The translations under genes and the position numbers were made by a program. From a virus (lineage: Duplodnaviria; Heunggongvirae; Uroviricota; Caudoviricetes), in IMG/VR virus record IMGVR_UViG_2690316115_000020, positions 1 through 23,060 of that record: a stretch of DNA of 23,060 bases. One strand, 5' to 3'. Of the stretch, positions 1-7,380 are shown one piece after another. The notes beneath the pieces were generated by a model, which saw nothing but the letters and a program-made list of their open reading frames with translations, was not told the DNA's origin and did no database searches. Positions within the stretch are counted from its first letter, which is position 1, and each line of letters opens with the position of its first letter.

Positions 1-1158
1 ATGCTCACCGTTAAGCAGATTGAAGCAGCAAAGCCGAAAGAAAAACCATACCGCCTTCTCGATGGTAATGGCCTGTACCTTTATGTCCCTGTGTCAGGGA
101 AAAAGGTATGGCAGCTTCGCTACAAGATTGACGGTAAGGAGAAAATACTGACCGTCGGAAAATATCCGCTTATGACTTTGCAAGAGGCAAGGGATAAAGC
201 ATGGGCTGCGAGGAAAGACATCTCGGTCGGCATCGATCCGGTAAAGGCGAAAAAGGCTTCGTCTAACAACAATTCCTTTAGTGCGATTTACAAGGAATGG
301 TACGAGCACAAGAAGCAAGTCTGGTCAGTAGGCTATGCAACTGAACTTGCCAAAATGTTTGACGACGACATTTTACCTATCATTGGCGGCCTTGAAATTC
401 AGGATATTGAGCCGATGCAACTGCTGGAAGTAATCCGCAGGTTTGAAGATCGCGGTGCAATGGAGCGAGCAAACAAAGCACGCAGAAGATGCGGCGAGGT
501 TTTCCGTTACGCTATTGTCACCGGAAGGGCTAAATATAACCCGGCACCTGACCTTGCTGACGCCATGAAGGGATACCGCAAGAAGAACTTCCCGTTTCTT
601 CCTGCAGACCAGATCCCGGCATTCAACAAAGCACTGGCAACATTTTCAGGAAGTATCGTATCGCTCATTGCCACCAAGGTTTTACGCTACACAGCCCTAA
701 GAACGAAAGAGCTTCGTTCCATGCAATGGAAGAACGTCGATTTTGAAAACAGGATTATCACCATCGACGCCAGTGTGATGAAGGGACGCAAAATTCATGT
801 GGTTCCTATGTCAGACCAGGTGGTTGAACTTCTCACTACGCTAAGCTCAATCACTAAACCAGTATCAGAGTTTGTTTTTGCCGGGCGCAACGATAAGAAG
901 AAGCCAATCTGCGAGAACGCGGTATTGCTTGTGATCAAACAAATCGGCTATGAGGGTCTGGAAAGCGGTCACGGATTCAGGCATGAATTCAGCACGATTA
1001 TGAACGAGCACGAATGGCCTGCTGATGCTATTGAAGTGCAACTGGCACATGCCAACGGCGGATCTGTGCGCGGAATTTACAACCATGCTCAGTATCTCGA
1101 TAAGCGCAGGGAGATGATGCAGTGGTGGGCGGACTGGATTGATGAAAAGCCGGAGTGA
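1..1158 (+). CDS. int: Phage integrase, tyrosine recombinase of the P4/IntS type
   Basis: 385-aa ORF beginning at window position 1 (MLTVKQIEAAKPKEKPYRLLDGNGLYLYV...), typical N-terminal arm-binding region of P4-family integrases. Catalytic-domain signature residues are present in order (..LRTKELRS.., ..HGFRHEF.., ..RGIYNHAQY). From memory it closely resembles E. coli CPS-53 IntS-type integrases. Confidence 0.9.
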   Translation: MLTVKQIEAAKPKEKPYRLLDGNGLYLYVPVSGKKVWQLRYKIDGKEKILTVGKYPLMTLQEARDKAWAARKDISVGIDPVKAKKASSNNNSFSAIYKEWYEHKKQVWSVGYATELAKMFDDDILPIIGGLEIQDIEPMQLLEVIRRFEDRGAMERANKARRRCGEVFRYAIVTGRAKYNPAPDLADAMKGYRKKNFPFLPADQIPAFNKALATFSGSIVSLIATKVLRYTALRTKELRSMQWKNVDFENRIITIDASVMKGRKIHVVPMSDQVVELLTTLSSITKPVSEFVFAGRNDKKKPICENAVLLVIKQIGYEGLESGHGFRHEFSTIMNEHEWPADAIEVQLAHANGGSVRGIYNHAQYLDKRREMMQWWADWIDEKPE

Positions 1159-1375
1159 TCCACCTTAACCACTATCGAAGAGCACAAAGCCTTGCAATCC
1201 AGTACAAAACTTTGTTTGTCTCATCAACCATAGCAAGTCATCGATCGATTGAGGCCTGGATGATAGACTTCATGCCTTTGATTATTAGCTGATAGAAGAA
1301 ATGTTAAAGCTATTTGCAATAGTACACCTCGATTGGTGTTATCAACACGCTAAAATGTTCTGAGATTAAGTCAAG

Positions 1376-2803
1376 ATGGAGTTAATTATGTTCAGAAATC
1401 AATATGCTATATCAGACGCTTCACTAAGTGGTAACATCAGTCCTGACATGGAATGGCACAGGATGAGCATATACCTAGGAGAGGGAGCAGAGGTTTTCGC
1501 TAATGACAATTGCATTATCATAGGTAAAGTCGTCAATAGCTGCGACCCTAGCATGTCCCCTAATGATATAGCAGACGCTGTATCATCATGCGACAGCATT
1601 GAAAGTGTTTTTGAACTGACTGATGGGATGGCAGGAAGATACATAATCGCTTTCATCATAAACTCAGAGGTATATATGCTGACTGATGCTTGCGGATTCA
1701 AAAGAGCTCTATTTATGAGGTATAATGGTGCAAAAATAATAACATCATCTGAAAATTACGCCGCTCACATATTTGGGTTTAACATTGTCATTAATGAAGA
1801 TATAAAAGATATGATGCGGGATGAATCCTACAGAAGAAAAGAAAGCCCATGGTTTGGTTTGACTTCTCCAGATGAAAGATTCAGTTATTTAATACCAAAT
1901 CACTACCTGTATATAGGTGATTTTTCGTTACATCGCATGCCCCCGCCAAAAATTGGTGGTGATGTAATTACCAGCGCATCATCAATGATAAAGAATACAA
2001 TTTTAGCACTTTCTGAAAGGTATAAGTTGATACAGCCTATAACGGCTGGCATTGACAGTAGGATTCTTCTTGCAGCATCTGAATCAGTTAAAGATAAAAT
2101 CGATTATTATGTATTTGGAGACGAAAACTCAAACCACGAAGACGTGTCCGTTCCTAAAGAGCTAGCAAAGATAGTTGGCGTAAATTTTAATGCAATCACC
2201 CCTCCGTCAGCACCAGATGAGTTCAAAAAGGAAATCGAAATGACAGTTCTTGGTGGTAGGGACTTGCCAAAAATAGATAATATATACTATCACTATAAAA
2301 ATTCTAACTTTGAAAAAGTAAACATCAATGGTAATGGCGCAGAGATATTCAGGTCGTATTATGGCGTGTCGATATTAGAGTTTAGCGCCAAGTCACTCTC
2401 TATACTTTCTGGAACTAAAAAATGGCCCATCATGGAAAGAAAGATTTATGATTGGCTAACCTTAACTGAAGCCAAAAGATTTTCTCAAGAGAACAATATA
2501 TCAATTACCGACCTTTTCTATTGGGAGCAAAGAATGGCAATATGGGGGTCTATGTTCCCTTTAGAGCAAGATATCGCAATGGATGAGGTGTCGCCATTCA
2601 GTAATAGAAAGCTAATTTTCACAATGCTGAGCGAATCTTCAAGCAAACGTAGATCACCAGACTTTAAATCGGCAACTTTGTTAATTAATTTTATGGATGA
2701 CAGATTAAATAAAGTGCCTGTAAATCCAAAATCATCAAACCATATTATAAACTTTATAAAGGCCCATACAATAACTCAGTTAATTGTTAAGAAAATAATC
2801 TAA
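1376..2803 (+). CDS. AT-rich cargo (moron) gene; soluble AsnB-family-like protein (class-II amidotransferase-like N-domain plus degenerate PP-loop synthetase domain), function unknown
   Basis: 475-aa ORF, visibly lower GC than flanking phage genes, with many AGA/AGG/ATA codons. The likely true start is the ATG at 1388 (GGAG 6 nt upstream, giving MFRNQ...). Motifs by eye, in AsnB order and spacing: GMAGRYIIAFIINSEVYMLTDACGFKRALFMRY..GAKIITSSE (res 84-126, cf. AsnB [37 protein letters not shown]); LIQPITAGIDSRILLAAS (res 218-234, PP-loop-like, cf. LLSGGLDSS); KELAKIVGVNFNAI (cf. QEVANHLGTVHHEI); NGNGAEIFRSYYG (res 318-330, cf. SGEGSDEVFGGY). No hydrophobic transmembrane segments are evident. 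Confidence that it is a real gene is high; the family assignment is moderate and not search-verified. Confidence 0.7.
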   Translation: MELIMFRNQYAISDASLSGNISPDMEWHRMSIYLGEGAEVFANDNCIIIGKVVNSCDPSMSPNDIADAVSSCDSIESVFELTDGMAGRYIIAFIINSEVYMLTDACGFKRALFMRYNGAKIITSSENYAAHIFGFNIVINEDIKDMMRDESYRRKESPWFGLTSPDERFSYLIPNHYLYIGDFSLHRMPPPKIGGDVITSASSMIKNTILALSERYKLIQPITAGIDSRILLAASESVKDKIDYYVFGDENSNHEDVSVPKELAKIVGVNFNAITPPSAPDEFKKEIEMTVLGGRDLPKIDNIYYHYKNSNFEKVNINGNGAEIFRSYYGVSILEFSAKSLSILSGTKKWPIMERKIYDWLTLTEAKRFSQENNISITDLFYWEQRMAIWGSMFPLEQDIAMDEVSPFSNRKLIFTMLSESSSKRRSPDFKSATLLINFMDDRLNKVPVNPKSSNHIINFIKAHTITQLIVKKII

Positions 2804-2814
2804 ATTTTAAATTT

Positions 2815-2847
2815 ATCAATATCGGGGAATGCAAACCCGATATTGAT
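2815..2847. terminator. Bidirectional intrinsic-terminator-like hairpin between the convergent cargo gene and tailspike gene
   Basis: Perfect 12-bp inverted repeat ATCAATATCGGG (2815-2826) / CCCGATATTGAT (2836-2847) with a 9-nt loop GAATGCAAA. It lies 12 nt after the cargo stop and 25 nt after the tailspike stop, with T/A-rich flanks on both sides. Confidence 0.6.
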
Positions 2848-2871
2848 TTAGATTGCGTTATTGATATGCAT

Positions 2872-5403
2872 TTAAATTATTGATAGCGTTCTGATTTCAT
2901 TTCCGGCCGGTGATGTCATAACTATCTGTGTTACGTTAGCGCCGGACACCGTATACGTCAGAATTATGTTACCAGCGGTTCCTATATTAAAGTTTTGTTT
3001 AGCACCTGATGAACCTATAGCTTTGGCATTCGTTAAAGTATACGTATTACCTGAGGTAAATCCTGTAGAAATTACAAATTGTTGCCCAACTTTAAAAGGA
3101 ACTGTCATTGTTACGGATGTTGACTCGACAGTGATAAACGGCAGGCTATGCTGTTTAACTCCCGTCACATCCCAGAACTCACAATTACGCACCAATGCTC
3201 GACCAATTAAACCGCGAGTTACAGGGAATGTTGTCTGGTCCTGTGATAAGAATGCTCCAACAATTTGCACGTTATCGAGCGTAATATCGTGTACTGTGGC
3301 CCCATCTATAGGACTTAACGTTGGTGATGCACTCCATAATTTACCACCCTTCATTTTGATACTCACAGGACCATTTGGGTCTCCACCATAATATGCACGG
3401 ATACGCTCAAATTTACAATCTGTGAGTTCATAGCTGCCGCGTTGATTGGTTTCGAACATTGTGTAAGCCTCGCCAGGCACGCCATGTCTAACATTGCTGG
3501 CAACAACACGGGGGTTATGTCGGAACGATGCCGACGTAACAGAGAAAACCGGCGCGCAGACATCATTGATGAGAATGTCCGTGGTATAACGCCCTGTAAC
3601 AGCGTTCTCAGAGTTACTCATATCCGAATATAGCGCTTTAAAGCGGGAGAAGTCTATGTTAAGCCCAACCCCTGCGCTTTTCGGGAGGGAGCCAAAATCA
3701 AGCCCGTCAATAACAATTTTCTTCGGAAAGTAAAGAACATTGTCGCGGCTAACTGTGATCAAAGTTCCTGGGTAAGTCACTGCGACGCCGGGGTACATTT
3801 TAATATCTTTCAGGGTGATATTATTAAATAGCGTAGGGCTTATAGGCGATCCGCTACTAGGCCCCTGCCCAGCAGTGACGGAGGCATTGATAATGCCGTT
3901 ACCCGGAACGTCGTTGCGCAAACCAGTTAGCTTTATATTCTCCATGTATAAATCACCATCGAAGAATCCCCCAGCGTCAGGGCGAGTCGCAATAATATTA
4001 CCAGGCTTATATGGTGAAGCGTTAAATGTTGAATTGGTTACGTACAAATCTCCGATACCAGAAGCGAGGACACCATAAACCCCAATATTACAGTCATTTA
4101 TCTTTAAGTAGTTTTGGAAGGGCCTGTGGAAATCAATTCGACTAAGATCACATCTTTCAAACCTTATATTGGCGCAATTATTGCTGCCTGTCGCCCCCCA
4201 ACCTTGACCATTTGCCGTTGCGTTTTTGATAGTAACATTCATCGATTCGCCTAGCCCGATGGCGTATGCGTAGCTATCAACACCATCTATTAAGGCGTTT
4301 GCTATGGCTGGCGTGTATAAACCATCCACTATAACATCATAGCTGTCGTGAATTTCTAACCGGGTATCATTAAAGTTTTGCGTTATCGGTCTGTTAATAA
4401 ATGACGTATTAATCAGACGAACTCTTGTTGCCTGATTAATAAAAATAATGCGATACCTTGTAGTAAGGCTCTCATCTATAGTCAACCCCTTAATGGTCTG
4501 CACATCTTTGCGAATTTTAAGTGCTTTAATAGATGTTGCGTTAGTTCCCAGGGCGTACTTAAGCGGGTTTTCAATGTATCCACGGTTATATACCCTGTTG
4601 AAATCTACGCGAGTTTGATTAACGCCATCGAAAATAAACATCGGTTGAGATGTTGATAACTGAATGAAGCAGCCGTCAAGGTCGGTGTTAGAAGCCAAAC
4701 CGTCAAGATAGTTGCTGCCTATTCCGCGAGAGTTACGAGTGGACGCATTAACACCATTAACCGGGGCCGAACCTGCCTCATAGGTTACAGGAGCGTCAGG
4801 CTGGCTAATAACAATCTGACCTGTCCACGTAGCGGATGGCTTGAGGACAGAACCAGTTAAATCCACATTTAAACTTTTAATATCAAGATAAGTATCACCA
4901 TCTAGTAGAAAAGTTCCGTCAGATTGCCTAACGTCTAAATTATTTGAATAAGCATAGTTCAGTGCCTTAGCTATGGCGGGAGCGTCATTTGTTACTCCAT
5001 CACCAATAGCGCCAAACTCCTTCAACGTTACCCAGTATTTTACTTTCTCCAAGCTCTTTTGATACTGATCCGGGTCGTACTTCAGCACATTAGGAAAATA
5101 GAACTGCTGTGATCCATATGCATCATAAACAGCCATAGAGTGGCCTTGCACAGTTACGAACTTGGCAATCTGTCCGTTATATACCGGATATCCGGCGGCG
5201 TTAATGATGATTGGTTGCGAAACAGGAACGTGAGAACCGTCTTCGTTCTCTACATAAACCGGAATCTGGTTTTCAGGATTTACCGGGTCAGTGTCAATTT
5301 TACCGATATAAATTTTGCCATTGGCAACCGCTTTAAAAGAACGCGCCATAGTGAAGAGTTGCGAAGGCATACTCACTACAACATTGGCTGTAATGTCTGT
5401 CAT
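2872..5403 (-). CDS. Tailspike protein: P22-type head-binding N-terminal domain fused to a long, divergent beta-helix-like receptor-binding/depolymerase domain
   Basis: 843-aa ORF. The N-terminal ~115 aa ([59 protein letters not shown]...[10 protein letters not shown]) matches the P22 gp9 head-binding domain as I recall it. The remainder is unrelated to P22 gp9 and carries a pectate-lyase-like motif [20 protein letters not shown] near its start. GGAG Shine-Dalgarno 8 nt upstream of the ATG. Confidence 0.9.
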
Positions 5404-5461
5404 TTAATTTGCTCCAGATACAAGGAATCGCCGCAGCATGGCTACGGTGAATTTTGGGCAT

Positions 5462-5485
5462 AAAAAAACCCAGCCGAAGCTGGGT
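5462..5485 (-). terminator. Rho-independent terminator between ejection-protein gene (gp16) and tailspike gene
   Basis: On the minus strand: ACCCAGC-TTCG-GCTGGGT hairpin (7-bp GC-rich stem, 4-nt loop; plus coordinates 5468-5485) followed immediately by a run of 6-7 T (plus-strand A-run 5462-5467). Confidence 0.65.
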
Positions 5486-5535
5486 CGTTGCGTTGGTTAT
5501 CTGTAAGTAGTTATGTGCTTAGTTAATTATTTATT

Positions 5536-7380
5536 CTATTGTTCTGCTGTAATTTGGCTTGCAAGTATAGGGCGTATCGCATTTGCAGCATTATTTAGCG
5601 CTCTTTCATAGGCTGGTGTTCCAAGCTTAGTGTTTGCCAAACGAAGAAGCATATTCCTTGCGGCTTTGGACTCATACAAACGCATCATTGCACCGAAACC
5701 AGCCTCAAGCCCCATTGATACGCCAAGAGTCGCAGTTGCGCCAATCGTCCTTATCCTGTTGGCTTGCGATTGCCCCGTCTGAGTTACTACATTTGCGGTG
5801 TCTGACCTTGCTGTTTGCTGTAGAACTTCATGAAGAGCATCAAGCTCTTTCATGTGCTTTCCAGAAAAAATAGTGTTGTAAATTTCACCACCCGACTGAG
5901 ATTTCAGCTTATTAACTTCAGTGATGAACCTGGCTGGAGAGTCACCGGCCTTTTCCGCTATTTTGCTGACGTAAGCTGCACGCATAGCATCTTTCCCTTT
6001 ATCATCCAATGCGCTCCAGATTCGTTTCACGTCAGATGGTTTTCTGCTTAATACAACGGTATTTATAAGTTCAGGACTGGCTTCACTGCTTGCCTGGTTG
6101 AGCTTGTTAGCAATGTTTTTATTAAGCACCTTATTATAAACATTTGCATAATCGGAATTTGCTTTAAGGTATTTTGCTGCGTCTGATGCACCGAGGTTTT
6201 TTGCAACTGCGTTACGAAGGTCTTTTGACATTGCATTCTCTACCATATTGGTAGCTGCTTTTGCCTGGTTGGGGAAGACCATAGCATCTCCCTGAACATT
6301 AGATCTAAATGCTGTTCTGTGCTGACGCAAGAGATCAAACGTAACATCCAAATCAGTTGCAGGGTTTGCTAATTCTTCACGTAGGTTACGCAAGGATGTA
6401 AGCAGGCTTTGATTGGCAGACGTCCCGAGCCGTTCCTGTCTTGCGATCGCTGTATTCAGAGCATTCATGGTATTTGTGGTATCAACTGCGGCATTACCCA
6501 TTTTATTGGTGACGTCATTGATAACAGCGCCAGCAGCATCCTTCCGTTCCCTTAACGTGGTGGTCAGAGATTTCACCACATCATCCGGGTTGTACTCACC
6601 AAAACGCTCAAAATAATTACTTACCAACTTACTCCGCGTTGCATATTGCTCTGCCCTTTTACTGCCAGTTCCAAGAATGGCCCCCTCAGCATCCTGAGTA
6701 AGACCACGAGTGAAAGCATTTTTCGGCGGGATAACATCAGATGTCATTGGTGTCACGCCCATCGATTCTGATGTGGCAATTTTCTTCGCCACTTCTGGCG
6801 CAATATCACCTTTTATAGCCGTTATTCCACGCCCTATTCCCTTTGCTGCTGCGGAAAGAACCCCCTGAGCGGCAAGGTTAACTCCGGCATTTTTGGCTGC
6901 ATTTTGTGCGAAATCGCCTTTCTGATTTGCGGCCTCTGCCAGTGATCCAATAGCCATGCTTCCTGCCATTCCAACTCCTGGAACTAAATACCCGCCAATT
7001 GTTTCTCCAGCTTGCGCATAAGGGTCTGTCGGTCGATAGACTGGACGATAGACATCATCCAAAACCTTGGGACCACCAAGCCCCTGACTGATTGCATTAA
7101 TCAGGCTTGCACCACCCTGTAACACGTCAAATGGTATGTTTACCAGACCACGACCAGCCTGTTCTGCAATTTGCCCTGCACTTTGACCACCAGTGAGCCA
7201 ATCGCCAGCTTGTTGCATCAATGATGGTTCTTCCCGTGTTGGTGCATTATTGGCCTGATTAACTGTTTGTTGCTGAACAGCCTGACCAGCAAAATACTCA
7301 TCAATGGCGGTGCCAATATCTTCGGTGCTCGTACTATCAGGAAAGGTAAATGTCTTACCGTTTGCAGTTACTTTCATCAT
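5536..7380 (-). CDS. Ejection (injection) protein, P22 gp16 homolog
   Basis: 614 aa; N-terminus [33 protein letters not shown] matches P22 gp16 as recalled. Size (P22 gp16 about 609 aa) and position (last ejection gene before the tailspike) fit. Confidence 0.85.

Follow-up and report, generated by a model that had tools for sequence, protein, structure and literature searches.

Why should a prophage carry a protein that resembles asparagine synthetase B (AsnB) and has neither the nucleophilic cysteine nor the canonical ATP-binding loop of that enzyme? The question is raised by a stretch of 23,060 nucleotides (IMG/VR virus record IMGVR_UViG_2690316115_000020, positions 1 to 23,060; the whole of it is referred to below as the window), in which an open reading frame (ORF) on the plus strand, here called the cargo gene (1376/1388..2803, 475/471 amino acids), lies between an integrase gene and a tailspike gene. 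A preliminary description of this ORF had left two alternatives, an ammonia- or amine-dependent adenylating enzyme or a catalytically dead scaffold, and held that either would be new for a prophage cargo gene. On balance we consider it probable that the cargo protein is an active, ATP-using enzyme of the AsnB / beta-lactam synthetase (BLS) superfamily without a glutaminase of its own, and that the gene acts in lysogenic conversion by modifying the host surface polysaccharide which is read by the adjacent tailspike. What this reading infers is that ATP is turned over, that the substrate is a carboxylate, what the nucleophile is, and which phenotype results.

The cargo gene (1388..2803, plus strand) likely starts at ATG 1388, because a Shine-Dalgarno sequence (GGAG, 1378..1381, plus strand; conserved in the Enterobacter copy described below) precedes it by 6 nt, homologues begin with M-F-[RK]-N-Q-Y and the PGAP annotation gives a protein of 471 amino acids. 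Residue numbers used here are those of the 475-residue form starting at ATG 1376, and 4 is to be subtracted for the 471-residue form. The preliminary description had noted the lack of an N-terminal Cys and had allowed that a true start further upstream might supply one. The frame is, however, closed by stops 2 and 4 codons ahead of ATG 1376, and a Met-Cys from an upstream start is therefore impossible. The absence extends to the family: 95 of the 98 homologues that have the N-terminal motif lack a Cys at or beside it. In the consensus of this motif, MFRNQY in the cargo protein, position 2 is F or Y, and the Q and N are found in 75/76 and 68/76 sequences, respectively. E. coli AsnB, human ASNS and the canonical AsnB-like proteins of polysaccharide clusters all have Cys1, whereas the cargo protein does not and so should not hydrolyse glutamine.

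The cargo protein has no significant match in Pfam, NCBIfam, PHROGs or PADLOC. Its top score against curated profile hidden Markov models (HMMs) was to NAD synthase (E 0.11, residues 214-289), it matched neither Pfam PF00733 nor TIGR01536 above the curated thresholds, and phmmer and profile hmmsearch of Protein Data Bank (PDB) sequences gave only sub-significant matches to PurF, in the glutaminase domain. PF00733 was matched by none of 76 family members and GATase_7, weakly, by 17. An AlphaFold2 model built with 76 homologues (mean predicted local distance difference test score 95.3, predicted template modelling score 0.94) returned full-length Foldseek matches in the PDB to CarA, BLS, TsnB9, human ASNS and E. 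coli AsnB (E 2e-12 to 1e-7), with CarA, TsnB9 and BLS as the closest solved folds. All five presumably form amide-type C-N bonds from adenylated carboxylates. By predicted two-domain, full-length fold together with profile homology the cargo protein belongs to the AsnB/BLS superfamily, and the label "AsnB-like" is valid only at this level of fold and profile. The two domains are an N-terminal class-II (N-terminal nucleophile, Ntn) glutamine-amidotransferase-like domain with no nucleophile and with the conserved MFRNQY peptide (1388..1951, plus strand), and a C-terminal PP-loop domain of the N-type ATP pyrophosphatase kind (1952..2800, plus strand). A few database entries name the protein "Glutamine amidotransferase type-2 domain-containing protein" or "Asparagine synthetase domain-containing protein", and the distant homology has therefore not gone wholly unnoticed before.

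The preliminary description had taken TAGIDS (T223 to S228, encoded at 2042-2059) for the PP-loop, with the reservation that the similarity might be coincidental. Three lines of evidence bear on this. First, two distant plasmid homologues, on E. coli pCE1537-B (E 2e-15) and in Natrinema (E 8e-18), were found by tblastn. Both exceed the Pfam Asn_synthase threshold at the PP-loop, and a joint MAFFT alignment places TAGIDS of the cargo protein in one column with SGGLDS of AsnB, SGGLDS of pCE1537-B and TAGLDS of Natrinema. Second, the family profile was compared by hhalign with a canonical profile composed of E. coli AsnB and six canonical AsnB-like proteins found near family members in genome loci (Cys at position 2 in 7/7; six begin M-C and one is read from a TTG codon). 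The match (Prob 95.7%, E 9e-9, 187 columns) pairs GRY with GMF, DACG with RDxxG, TSS with ASE, and PITAGIDS with LLSGGLDS. The seven-sequence profile was needed for this, as against the single AsnB sequence the register was right and the probability 4%. Third, in the model TAGIDS comes after strand 217-221 and opens helix 226-234, which is the classical position of a PP-loop. Because the aligned bridges, the hhalign match and the model topology concur, the similarity is homologous and not coincidental, and the variant loop T-A-G-I-D-S-R is placed at 2042..2062 (plus strand) by alignment to the SGGLDS that both AsnB and the pCE1537-B homologue contain. The second motif proposed earlier, NGNGAEI as an SGEGxDE-type sequence, was read correctly from the letters, and its equivalence is less certain than that of the PP-loop. 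The loop (N318 to I324, 2327..2347, plus strand) forms a Gly-rich turn after strand 314-317 of the model and is probably the counterpart of S-G-E-G-S-D-E in AsnB; it aligned with ...LSGEGSDEVF... only in a greedy extension of the hhalign match, in which KVNINGNGA-EIFRSYYG pairs with KMVLSGEGSDEVFGGYLY and DEVSPFSN with EARVPFLD, at lower confidence and in agreement with the model topology.

The pCE1537-B homologue itself (L015 7942-10287) is a 781-residue "asparagine synthase-related protein" encoded in a capsule cluster on the plasmid. Homology to the cargo protein extends over its C-terminal ~420 residues, which carry the canonical SGGLDS, and its N-terminal ~350 residues have no Pfam match.

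It could be argued that the cargo protein is a catalytically dead scaffold, i.e., an AsnB-like fold kept not for catalysis but, e.g., to bind, to regulate or to act as a decoy. The nucleophilic Cys is gone, the PP-loop departs from SGGxDS (Gly3, Asp5 and Ser6 are kept, Ser1 is Thr and Gly2 is Ala), Asn stands at the position of the catalytic E348 of AsnB, and the protein stays below all curated HMM thresholds. Yet these departures are fixed throughout the family. In the conservation set, 76 bacterial and archaeal homologues that are 27-50% identical to the cargo protein, 13 columns are invariant (G50, G87, R88, D104, S124, N175, T223, G225, D227, R229, W383, E384, and N450), among them T, G, D, and R of the loop, and its A224 (74/76) and S228 (72/76) are nearly so. 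Another 34 columns are at least 90% conserved, including Q9, Y10, A224, S228, N316, G319, and N320, and in the second motif N318 is found in 63/76, G319 in 74/76, N320 in 69/76 and E323 in 65/76 sequences. A census of the loop in 120 homologues gave TAGxDS in 102, TAGxDT in nine, TSGxDS in five, TGGxDS in two, and SGGxDS in one. As a few members have TGG or SGG loops, the variant and the canonical form can stand in for each other in this family, and a T-A-G that is fixed with an occasional reversion to Gly is the pattern expected of a working loop. The altered motifs are thus a family signature and not decay, T-A-G-x-D-S-R being, as the family shows, a stable natural variant of the PP-loop. 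The conserved positions (Asp, Ser, and the third Gly) are moreover those that matter for ATP-Mg binding in PP-loop enzymes, and BLS and CarA, two of the best structural matches, are fully active although they too have lost Cys1.

Selection on the gene points the same way. Between the E. coli and Enterobacter prophage copies the ratio of nonsynonymous to synonymous substitution rates (dN/dS) is 0.17 (dS 0.45), and among E. coli copies it is 0.07-0.08, a value that rests on only 9-12 substitutions. Judged from these sequences the cargo gene is clearly under purifying selection in prophages, and an intact copy is retained in prophage remnants that have been stripped of nearly everything else. With the motifs fixed family-wide and purifying selection acting on the gene, a dead scaffold appears very unlikely, and the evidence favours an active, glutaminase-independent adenylating enzyme; of the two alternatives left by the preliminary description the first is thereby preferred. 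The N-terminal domain may have a function as well, e.g., in the binding of substrate or amine, since its N-terminal peptide and a set of its polar residues (Q9, R88, D104, S124, E156, W159, N175, H176, and R187) are strongly conserved.

The cargo protein is part of a large family. A word-indexed search gave 143 matches, and an exhaustive profile search of representatives at 50% identity gave 6,034 at E 1e-3, 3,682 at 1e-10, and 1,760 at 1e-30; the family thus amounts to 1,760 to 6,000 clusters at 50% identity and has no Pfam model. Among representative genomes of 185,579 species 161 relatives were found, in many bacterial phyla, haloarchaea, and Bathyarchaeia. For eight non-phage homologues the Pfam context was precomputed, and six of these lie in polysaccharide clusters or directly beside sugar-modification genes. 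The neighbours are Wzy, Wzx, EpsH/EpsI, Wzz, and Wza in Candidatus Symbiobacter (P0010); Wzx, pyruvyl transferase and glycosyltransferases, with a UDP-sugar dehydrogenase directly downstream, in Thioalkalivibrio (P0013); a priming transferase, Wzx, glycosyltransferases, UDP-sugar dehydrogenase, Wzy, and a 2-epimerase in Priestia (P0116); and, in metagenomes, glycosyltransferases, EpsG, DegT, and a PglD-like protein (P0004), Wzy, glycosyltransferases, Wzx, and pyruvyl transferase (P0005), or PIG-L, a formyltransferase and a priming transferase (P0027). One further metagenomic homologue (P0045) lies ~6 kb from polysaccharide export and priming genes, and the last (P0102) has no polysaccharide-related neighbours. 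Both plasmid homologues are also found in capsule or glycan clusters, that of pCE1537-B directly after wecB-wecC and that of Natrinema after a flippase. A cruder scan, by tblastn with E. coli marker proteins over a range of 10 kb, took in 73 genome loci whose flanks were 8 kb or longer. At least one polysaccharide marker was present in 51 of the 73; for the 22 marker-less loci, Pfam was run on ten immediate neighbours from nine of them, and four had polysaccharide-related neighbours (GT2, Wzx, a PL14 lyase, and a weak GT47 match) and five unrelated ones. The family is predominantly, and not exclusively, an accessory gene of surface-glycan loci. There was no partner gene common to all 73 loci.

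What the cargo gene does in the prophage is suggested by the place that it occupies. The intS-gtrA intergenic region (1159..1300, plus strand), homologous to the E. coli intS-yfdG region, would provide the promoter and 5' leader of a gtr operon, and window 1160-1351 matches, at 90-97% identity, a sequence that ends inside yfdG/gtrA in ~690 E. coli genomes. Promoter function is assigned here from homology, since a consensus scan of the leader found no convincing sigma-70 promoter and nothing above shuffle expectation. The leader is followed by a frameshifted remnant of gtrA, the start codon and ~17 codons (1301..1363, plus strand), which marks the left junction of the replacement: ATGTTAAAGCTATTTGCA encodes MLKLFA, the start of YfdG/GtrA in strain SC418, and in the alignment to the SC418 intS-yfdG region gtrA homology ends near 1351-1353, after which comes the cargo leader. 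Through a 1-nt insertion near 1320 the remnant runs into a stop (1361-1363) that lies 25 nt ahead of the cargo gene, and the 20-codon leader ORF so formed might couple translation. Because the same remnant and junction, minus the 1-nt insertion, are present in a prophage of Enterobacter hormaechei (L007), one ancestral event put the cargo gene in place of gtrA' through gtrC. The cargo gene accordingly sits where the gtr operon belongs, between integrase and tailspike, in the slot used for serotype conversion, and the cargo protein has no Pfam match to GtrA, GtrB, GtrC, or Oac homologues.

Downstream, a 12-bp hairpin (2815..2847) with a T-rich stretch after it lies between the convergent cargo and tailspike genes and is probably a bidirectional terminator shared by them. 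It was found by folding (stretch 2795-2880, 86 nt, minimum free energy -23.1 kcal/mol, z = -4.16, 0/200 shuffles fold as well) and was missed by a consensus terminator scan, which gave nothing above shuffle expectation. The tailspike gene (2872..5403, minus strand, 843 amino acids), convergent with the cargo gene and 68 nt downstream of it, encodes a P22 head-binding domain (amino acids 1-113, Pfam Head_binding E 2e-66) and a beta-helix receptor-binding domain, the helix start of which is pectate-lyase-like according to Pfam. The gtrA remnant, cargo gene, terminator and receptor-binding domain together form a mobile module (1301..5019): in a single blastn block window 1301-5019 matches L007 5293-9010 without interruption at 81.5% identity over 3,728 columns (3.7 kb), and the module is also found in strain DAM, at 91% and at another chromosomal site. 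Amino acids 118-843 of the tailspike are 82% identical to the tailspike beside the Enterobacter copy, whereas the particle-binding N-terminal domains are unrelated; the Enterobacter prophage carries a tape-measure gene and thus differs in tail type. The GC content is 32-40% in the module (cargo gene and 3' end of the tailspike gene) vs. 46-50% in the integrase gene and in the virion genes that follow the module. Genes of glycan loci commonly have a low GC content. That the family is large, uncharacterised and mainly found in polysaccharide loci, and that the cargo gene has replaced gtrABC and travels with a tailspike receptor-binding domain, goes beyond the preliminary description.

Carriers are few in E. 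coli, where the cargo gene was found in five of 5,426 complete genomes, and apparently more frequent in the Enterobacter cloacae complex, with individual variants present on 80, 31, and 26 contigs; the protein of the E. hormaechei prophage (P0002) is 85% identical to the cargo protein. In E. coli the identical protein occurs in intact P22-like prophages at the yfdC/argW site, and near-identical copies in decayed remnants that occupy the dacD-sbcB interval, at a distance of ~15-20 kb from the O-antigen cluster, and are flanked by insertion sequence (IS) elements and a group II intron. The intact cargo genes in remnants (L001 12237-13652, L020 7237-8652, and L017 6184-7599) are from O91 and O38 strains, and remnants were carried by 3/27 O91 and 2/13 O38 genomes. 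Two IS1B copies enclose the module in strain DAM, where it adjoins an Oac-type Acyl_transf_3 gene. Among 50,697 phage genomes none had a member of the cargo family by tblastn, and megablast found the gtr leader only. The earlier claim of novelty holds only in part: proteins of AsnB fold are already known from phages, e.g., Achromobacter phage Motura, but they are only 10-15% identical to the cargo protein, and none was found at a lysogenic-conversion locus.

Gene context also bears on the view that the enzyme is active on a target other than a glycan, e.g., as a lactam or amide synthetase for a small molecule or peptide (of the BLS, CarA, or lasso-cyclase type), or else as an anti-phage defence or metabolic moron. 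The closest solved folds are those of natural-product enzymes, cargo genes near a prophage integrase are often defence-related, and some family members have no polysaccharide genes nearby. On the other hand, neither the precursor peptide and B-type protease genes that accompany lasso-peptide cyclases such as McjC nor beta-lactam or carbapenem genes adjoin the cargo gene in the window or at related loci; the window and more than 20 related loci show phage or polysaccharide genes and no clavam or carbapenem cluster. A known anti-phage defence system was rejected as PADLOC-DB gave no significant match, the best being PD-T4-6 (E 0.032 over 35 residues). As most relatives lie in polysaccharide loci, and the cargo gene took the place of gtrABC and is joined to the receptor-binding domain of the tailspike, a non-glycan target is considered improbable.

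If the cargo protein is taken to be a glycan-modifying amide ligase, its mode of action can be outlined. Enzymes of the N-type ATP pyrophosphatase class activate an acid by adenylation and then join it to ammonia or an amine; the Cys-less BLS and CarA use a substrate amine (PMC6594144). Carboxylate amidation is by analogy the probable chemistry of the cargo protein. Expressed by the prophage from the gtr promoter, the enzyme would bind ATP-Mg through the T-A-G-x-D-S-R loop of its C-terminal domain and adenylate the carboxyl group of a sugar acid (a uronic acid, pyruvyl ketal or similar) carried by a nucleotide sugar or by an undecaprenyl-PP-linked repeat unit at the cytoplasmic face. An amine, either free ammonia or an amino compound that is possibly held by the conserved, Cys-less N-terminal domain, would then displace AMP to give an amide with no hydrolysis of glutamine. 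The altered glycan would change the serotype and would be expected to blunt recognition by tailspikes of the same specificity, i.e., bring about superinfection exclusion.

Several observations weigh against this reading. No counterpart of the catalytic Lys (K449 in AsnB, K443 in BLS) or of the Tyr/Glu dyad (Y348/E382 in BLS) could be located, the alignment being reliable only to residue ~277. Ala at the second Gly of the PP-loop could in principle impair the binding of pyrophosphate. The cargo protein is soluble and cytoplasmic, with no hydrophobic segment (highest 19-residue Kyte-Doolittle mean 1.36), whereas the known O-antigen modifiers of phages (GtrABC, Oac) are membrane proteins. At about a quarter of the loci polysaccharide genes were not seen nearby. 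At least two O serogroups (O91 and O38) are represented among the E. coli carriers, and a single O-antigen substrate is therefore not obvious. Finally, a uronic-acid-forming dehydrogenase of the Ugd/WecC type lies within 10 kb in only 11/73 loci, so that the context does not indicate a uronic acid substrate in most cases; a universal link to uronic-acid synthesis was rejected on this count, the sensitivity of which is limited by the E. coli BLAST references.

The scarcity of such dehydrogenases would also fit an enzyme of the same class that acts on a glycan by another chemistry, either by adenylating a carbonyl oxygen (acetamido to acetamidino, as in the WbuX/PseA type) or with ammonia delivered by a separate glutaminase or a canonical AsnB-like partner. 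That PP-loop enzymes also activate carbonyl oxygens is established (PMC6594144). At six loci in unrelated genomes a canonical, Cys-bearing AsnB-like paralogue lies ~0.3-4 kb from the family gene (L050 4940-6913, L051 13395-15266, L064 7671-9557, L086 14819-16684, L096 11804-13663, and L100 11585-13432), all six with Cys at position 2 and SGG[LIV]DS, the last Ser being Pro in two. Such neighbours may reflect a functional pairing or two separate amidations, and their coexistence argues that the family has a distinct role. The cargo protein gave neither a family HMM match nor a close fold match to N-acetyl sugar amidotransferases of the WbuX/PseA type, and we regard a different chemistry on a glycan as unlikely.

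Among known systems the proposed amide ligase would work most like BLS and CarA, here in a glycan setting. It shares with these the lack of Cys1, but it is only 10-15% identical to them, it has TAGxDSR in place of SGGxDS, its family shows strong conservation of both the N-terminal peptide and the N-domain, and this family is found in polysaccharide loci or a phage conversion locus where BLS and CarA are found in antibiotic clusters. From AsnB it differs, Cys1 apart, by the Ala at position 2 of the PP-loop, the Asn at the E348 position and scores below the PF00733 and TIGR01536 thresholds. With GtrABC/Oac cassettes the cargo gene has the slot, the promoter, the leader and the first gtrA codons in common, as well as co-inheritance with the tailspike receptor-binding domain; the products are unrelated, as GtrABC and Oac are membrane-embedded glycosyl- and acyltransferases whereas the cargo protein is soluble and predicted to be ATP-dependent. 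That an enzyme can use ATP to amidate a uronic acid of a polysaccharide with an amine is known from the glucuronamide amidoligase of the Campylobacter jejuni HS:2 capsule, which we take to be Cj1438, of ATP-grasp fold. This enzyme has a different fold, proceeds through an acyl-phosphate and not an acyl-adenylate, and has no sequence or structural relation to the cargo protein.

Phage-encoded conversion of the O-antigen is known to proceed by membrane glycosyl- or acetyltransferases or by polymerase swaps. If the proposal is true, the gtr slot here holds a cytoplasmic enzyme of AsnB type that depends on ATP, and serotype change and superinfection exclusion would gain a further chemistry that is new; the path to a new mode of lysogenic conversion is a credible one. 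Seroconversion by an AsnB-like enzyme was not found in literature searches, nor was any asparagine-synthetase-like protein tied to tailspike-linked O-antigen modification or to uronic-acid amidation. The linkage of modifier gene and receptor-binding domain across phage types and genera would make a clean mobile "recognise and modify" module, and beyond phages the cargo gene draws attention to a family of polysaccharide loci that is large, unannotated and found in more than one domain of life. Amide-linked amino acids are listed among the O-antigen constituents in a review of E. coli O-antigens, a keyword search of which turned up no AsnB-type or amidotransferase gene for them (PMC7685785), and the cargo family is a testable candidate for this function. 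It is tempting to speculate, tentatively, that the cargo gene is the founding case of a new phage serotype conversion, in which a soluble, glutaminase-less AsnB-like amide ligase adds ammonia or an amino compound to an acidic O-antigen or capsule sugar and is inherited with the tailspike that reads this glycan, and that the family could comprise the enzymes behind amide-linked uronic-acid decorations of bacterial and archaeal surface glycans.

One specific substrate was considered and rejected. The O91 O-antigen carries amide-linked glycine (PMC7685785) and three of the five E. coli carriers are O91. A role as the O91 glycine-amide ligase is contradicted by the lack of the gene in 24/27 O91 genomes; the other two carriers are O38, and the gene is missing in 11/13 O38 genomes.

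In sequenced phages the nearest relatives of the tailspike receptor-binding domain (window 2872-5052) are those of Enterobacter phage fGh-Ecl02 and Shigella phage MK-13, both at 57%, followed by E. coli phage Rtp at 49%; the host of MK-13 is S. boydii type 1. More distant matches include many Klebsiella fibres of the capsule-depolymerase type. In the gtr leader a GATC at 1243, within ATCGATCGAT (window 1240-1250), is conserved in the window, E. coli SC418 and the Enterobacter locus, the last having two GATC sites. In gtr operons of the P22 type, phase variation depends on Dam and OxyR. At the left end of the window an IntS-type tyrosine integrase of 385 amino acids (1..1158, plus strand) marks the end of the prophage at the argW / yfdC site. 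Loci with an identical cargo protein have Phage_integrase next to fadL-mlaA-yfdC, and in strain SC418 intS likewise follows tRNA-Arg. Beyond the tailspike come P22-type ejection, tail, coat, scaffold, portal, and terminase genes. An Arc/Mnt-type repressor gene lies in the tailspike-gp16 interval of one otherwise near-identical prophage (L104 10138-10398); it is missing from this interval in the window and in L101, another near-identical prophage.

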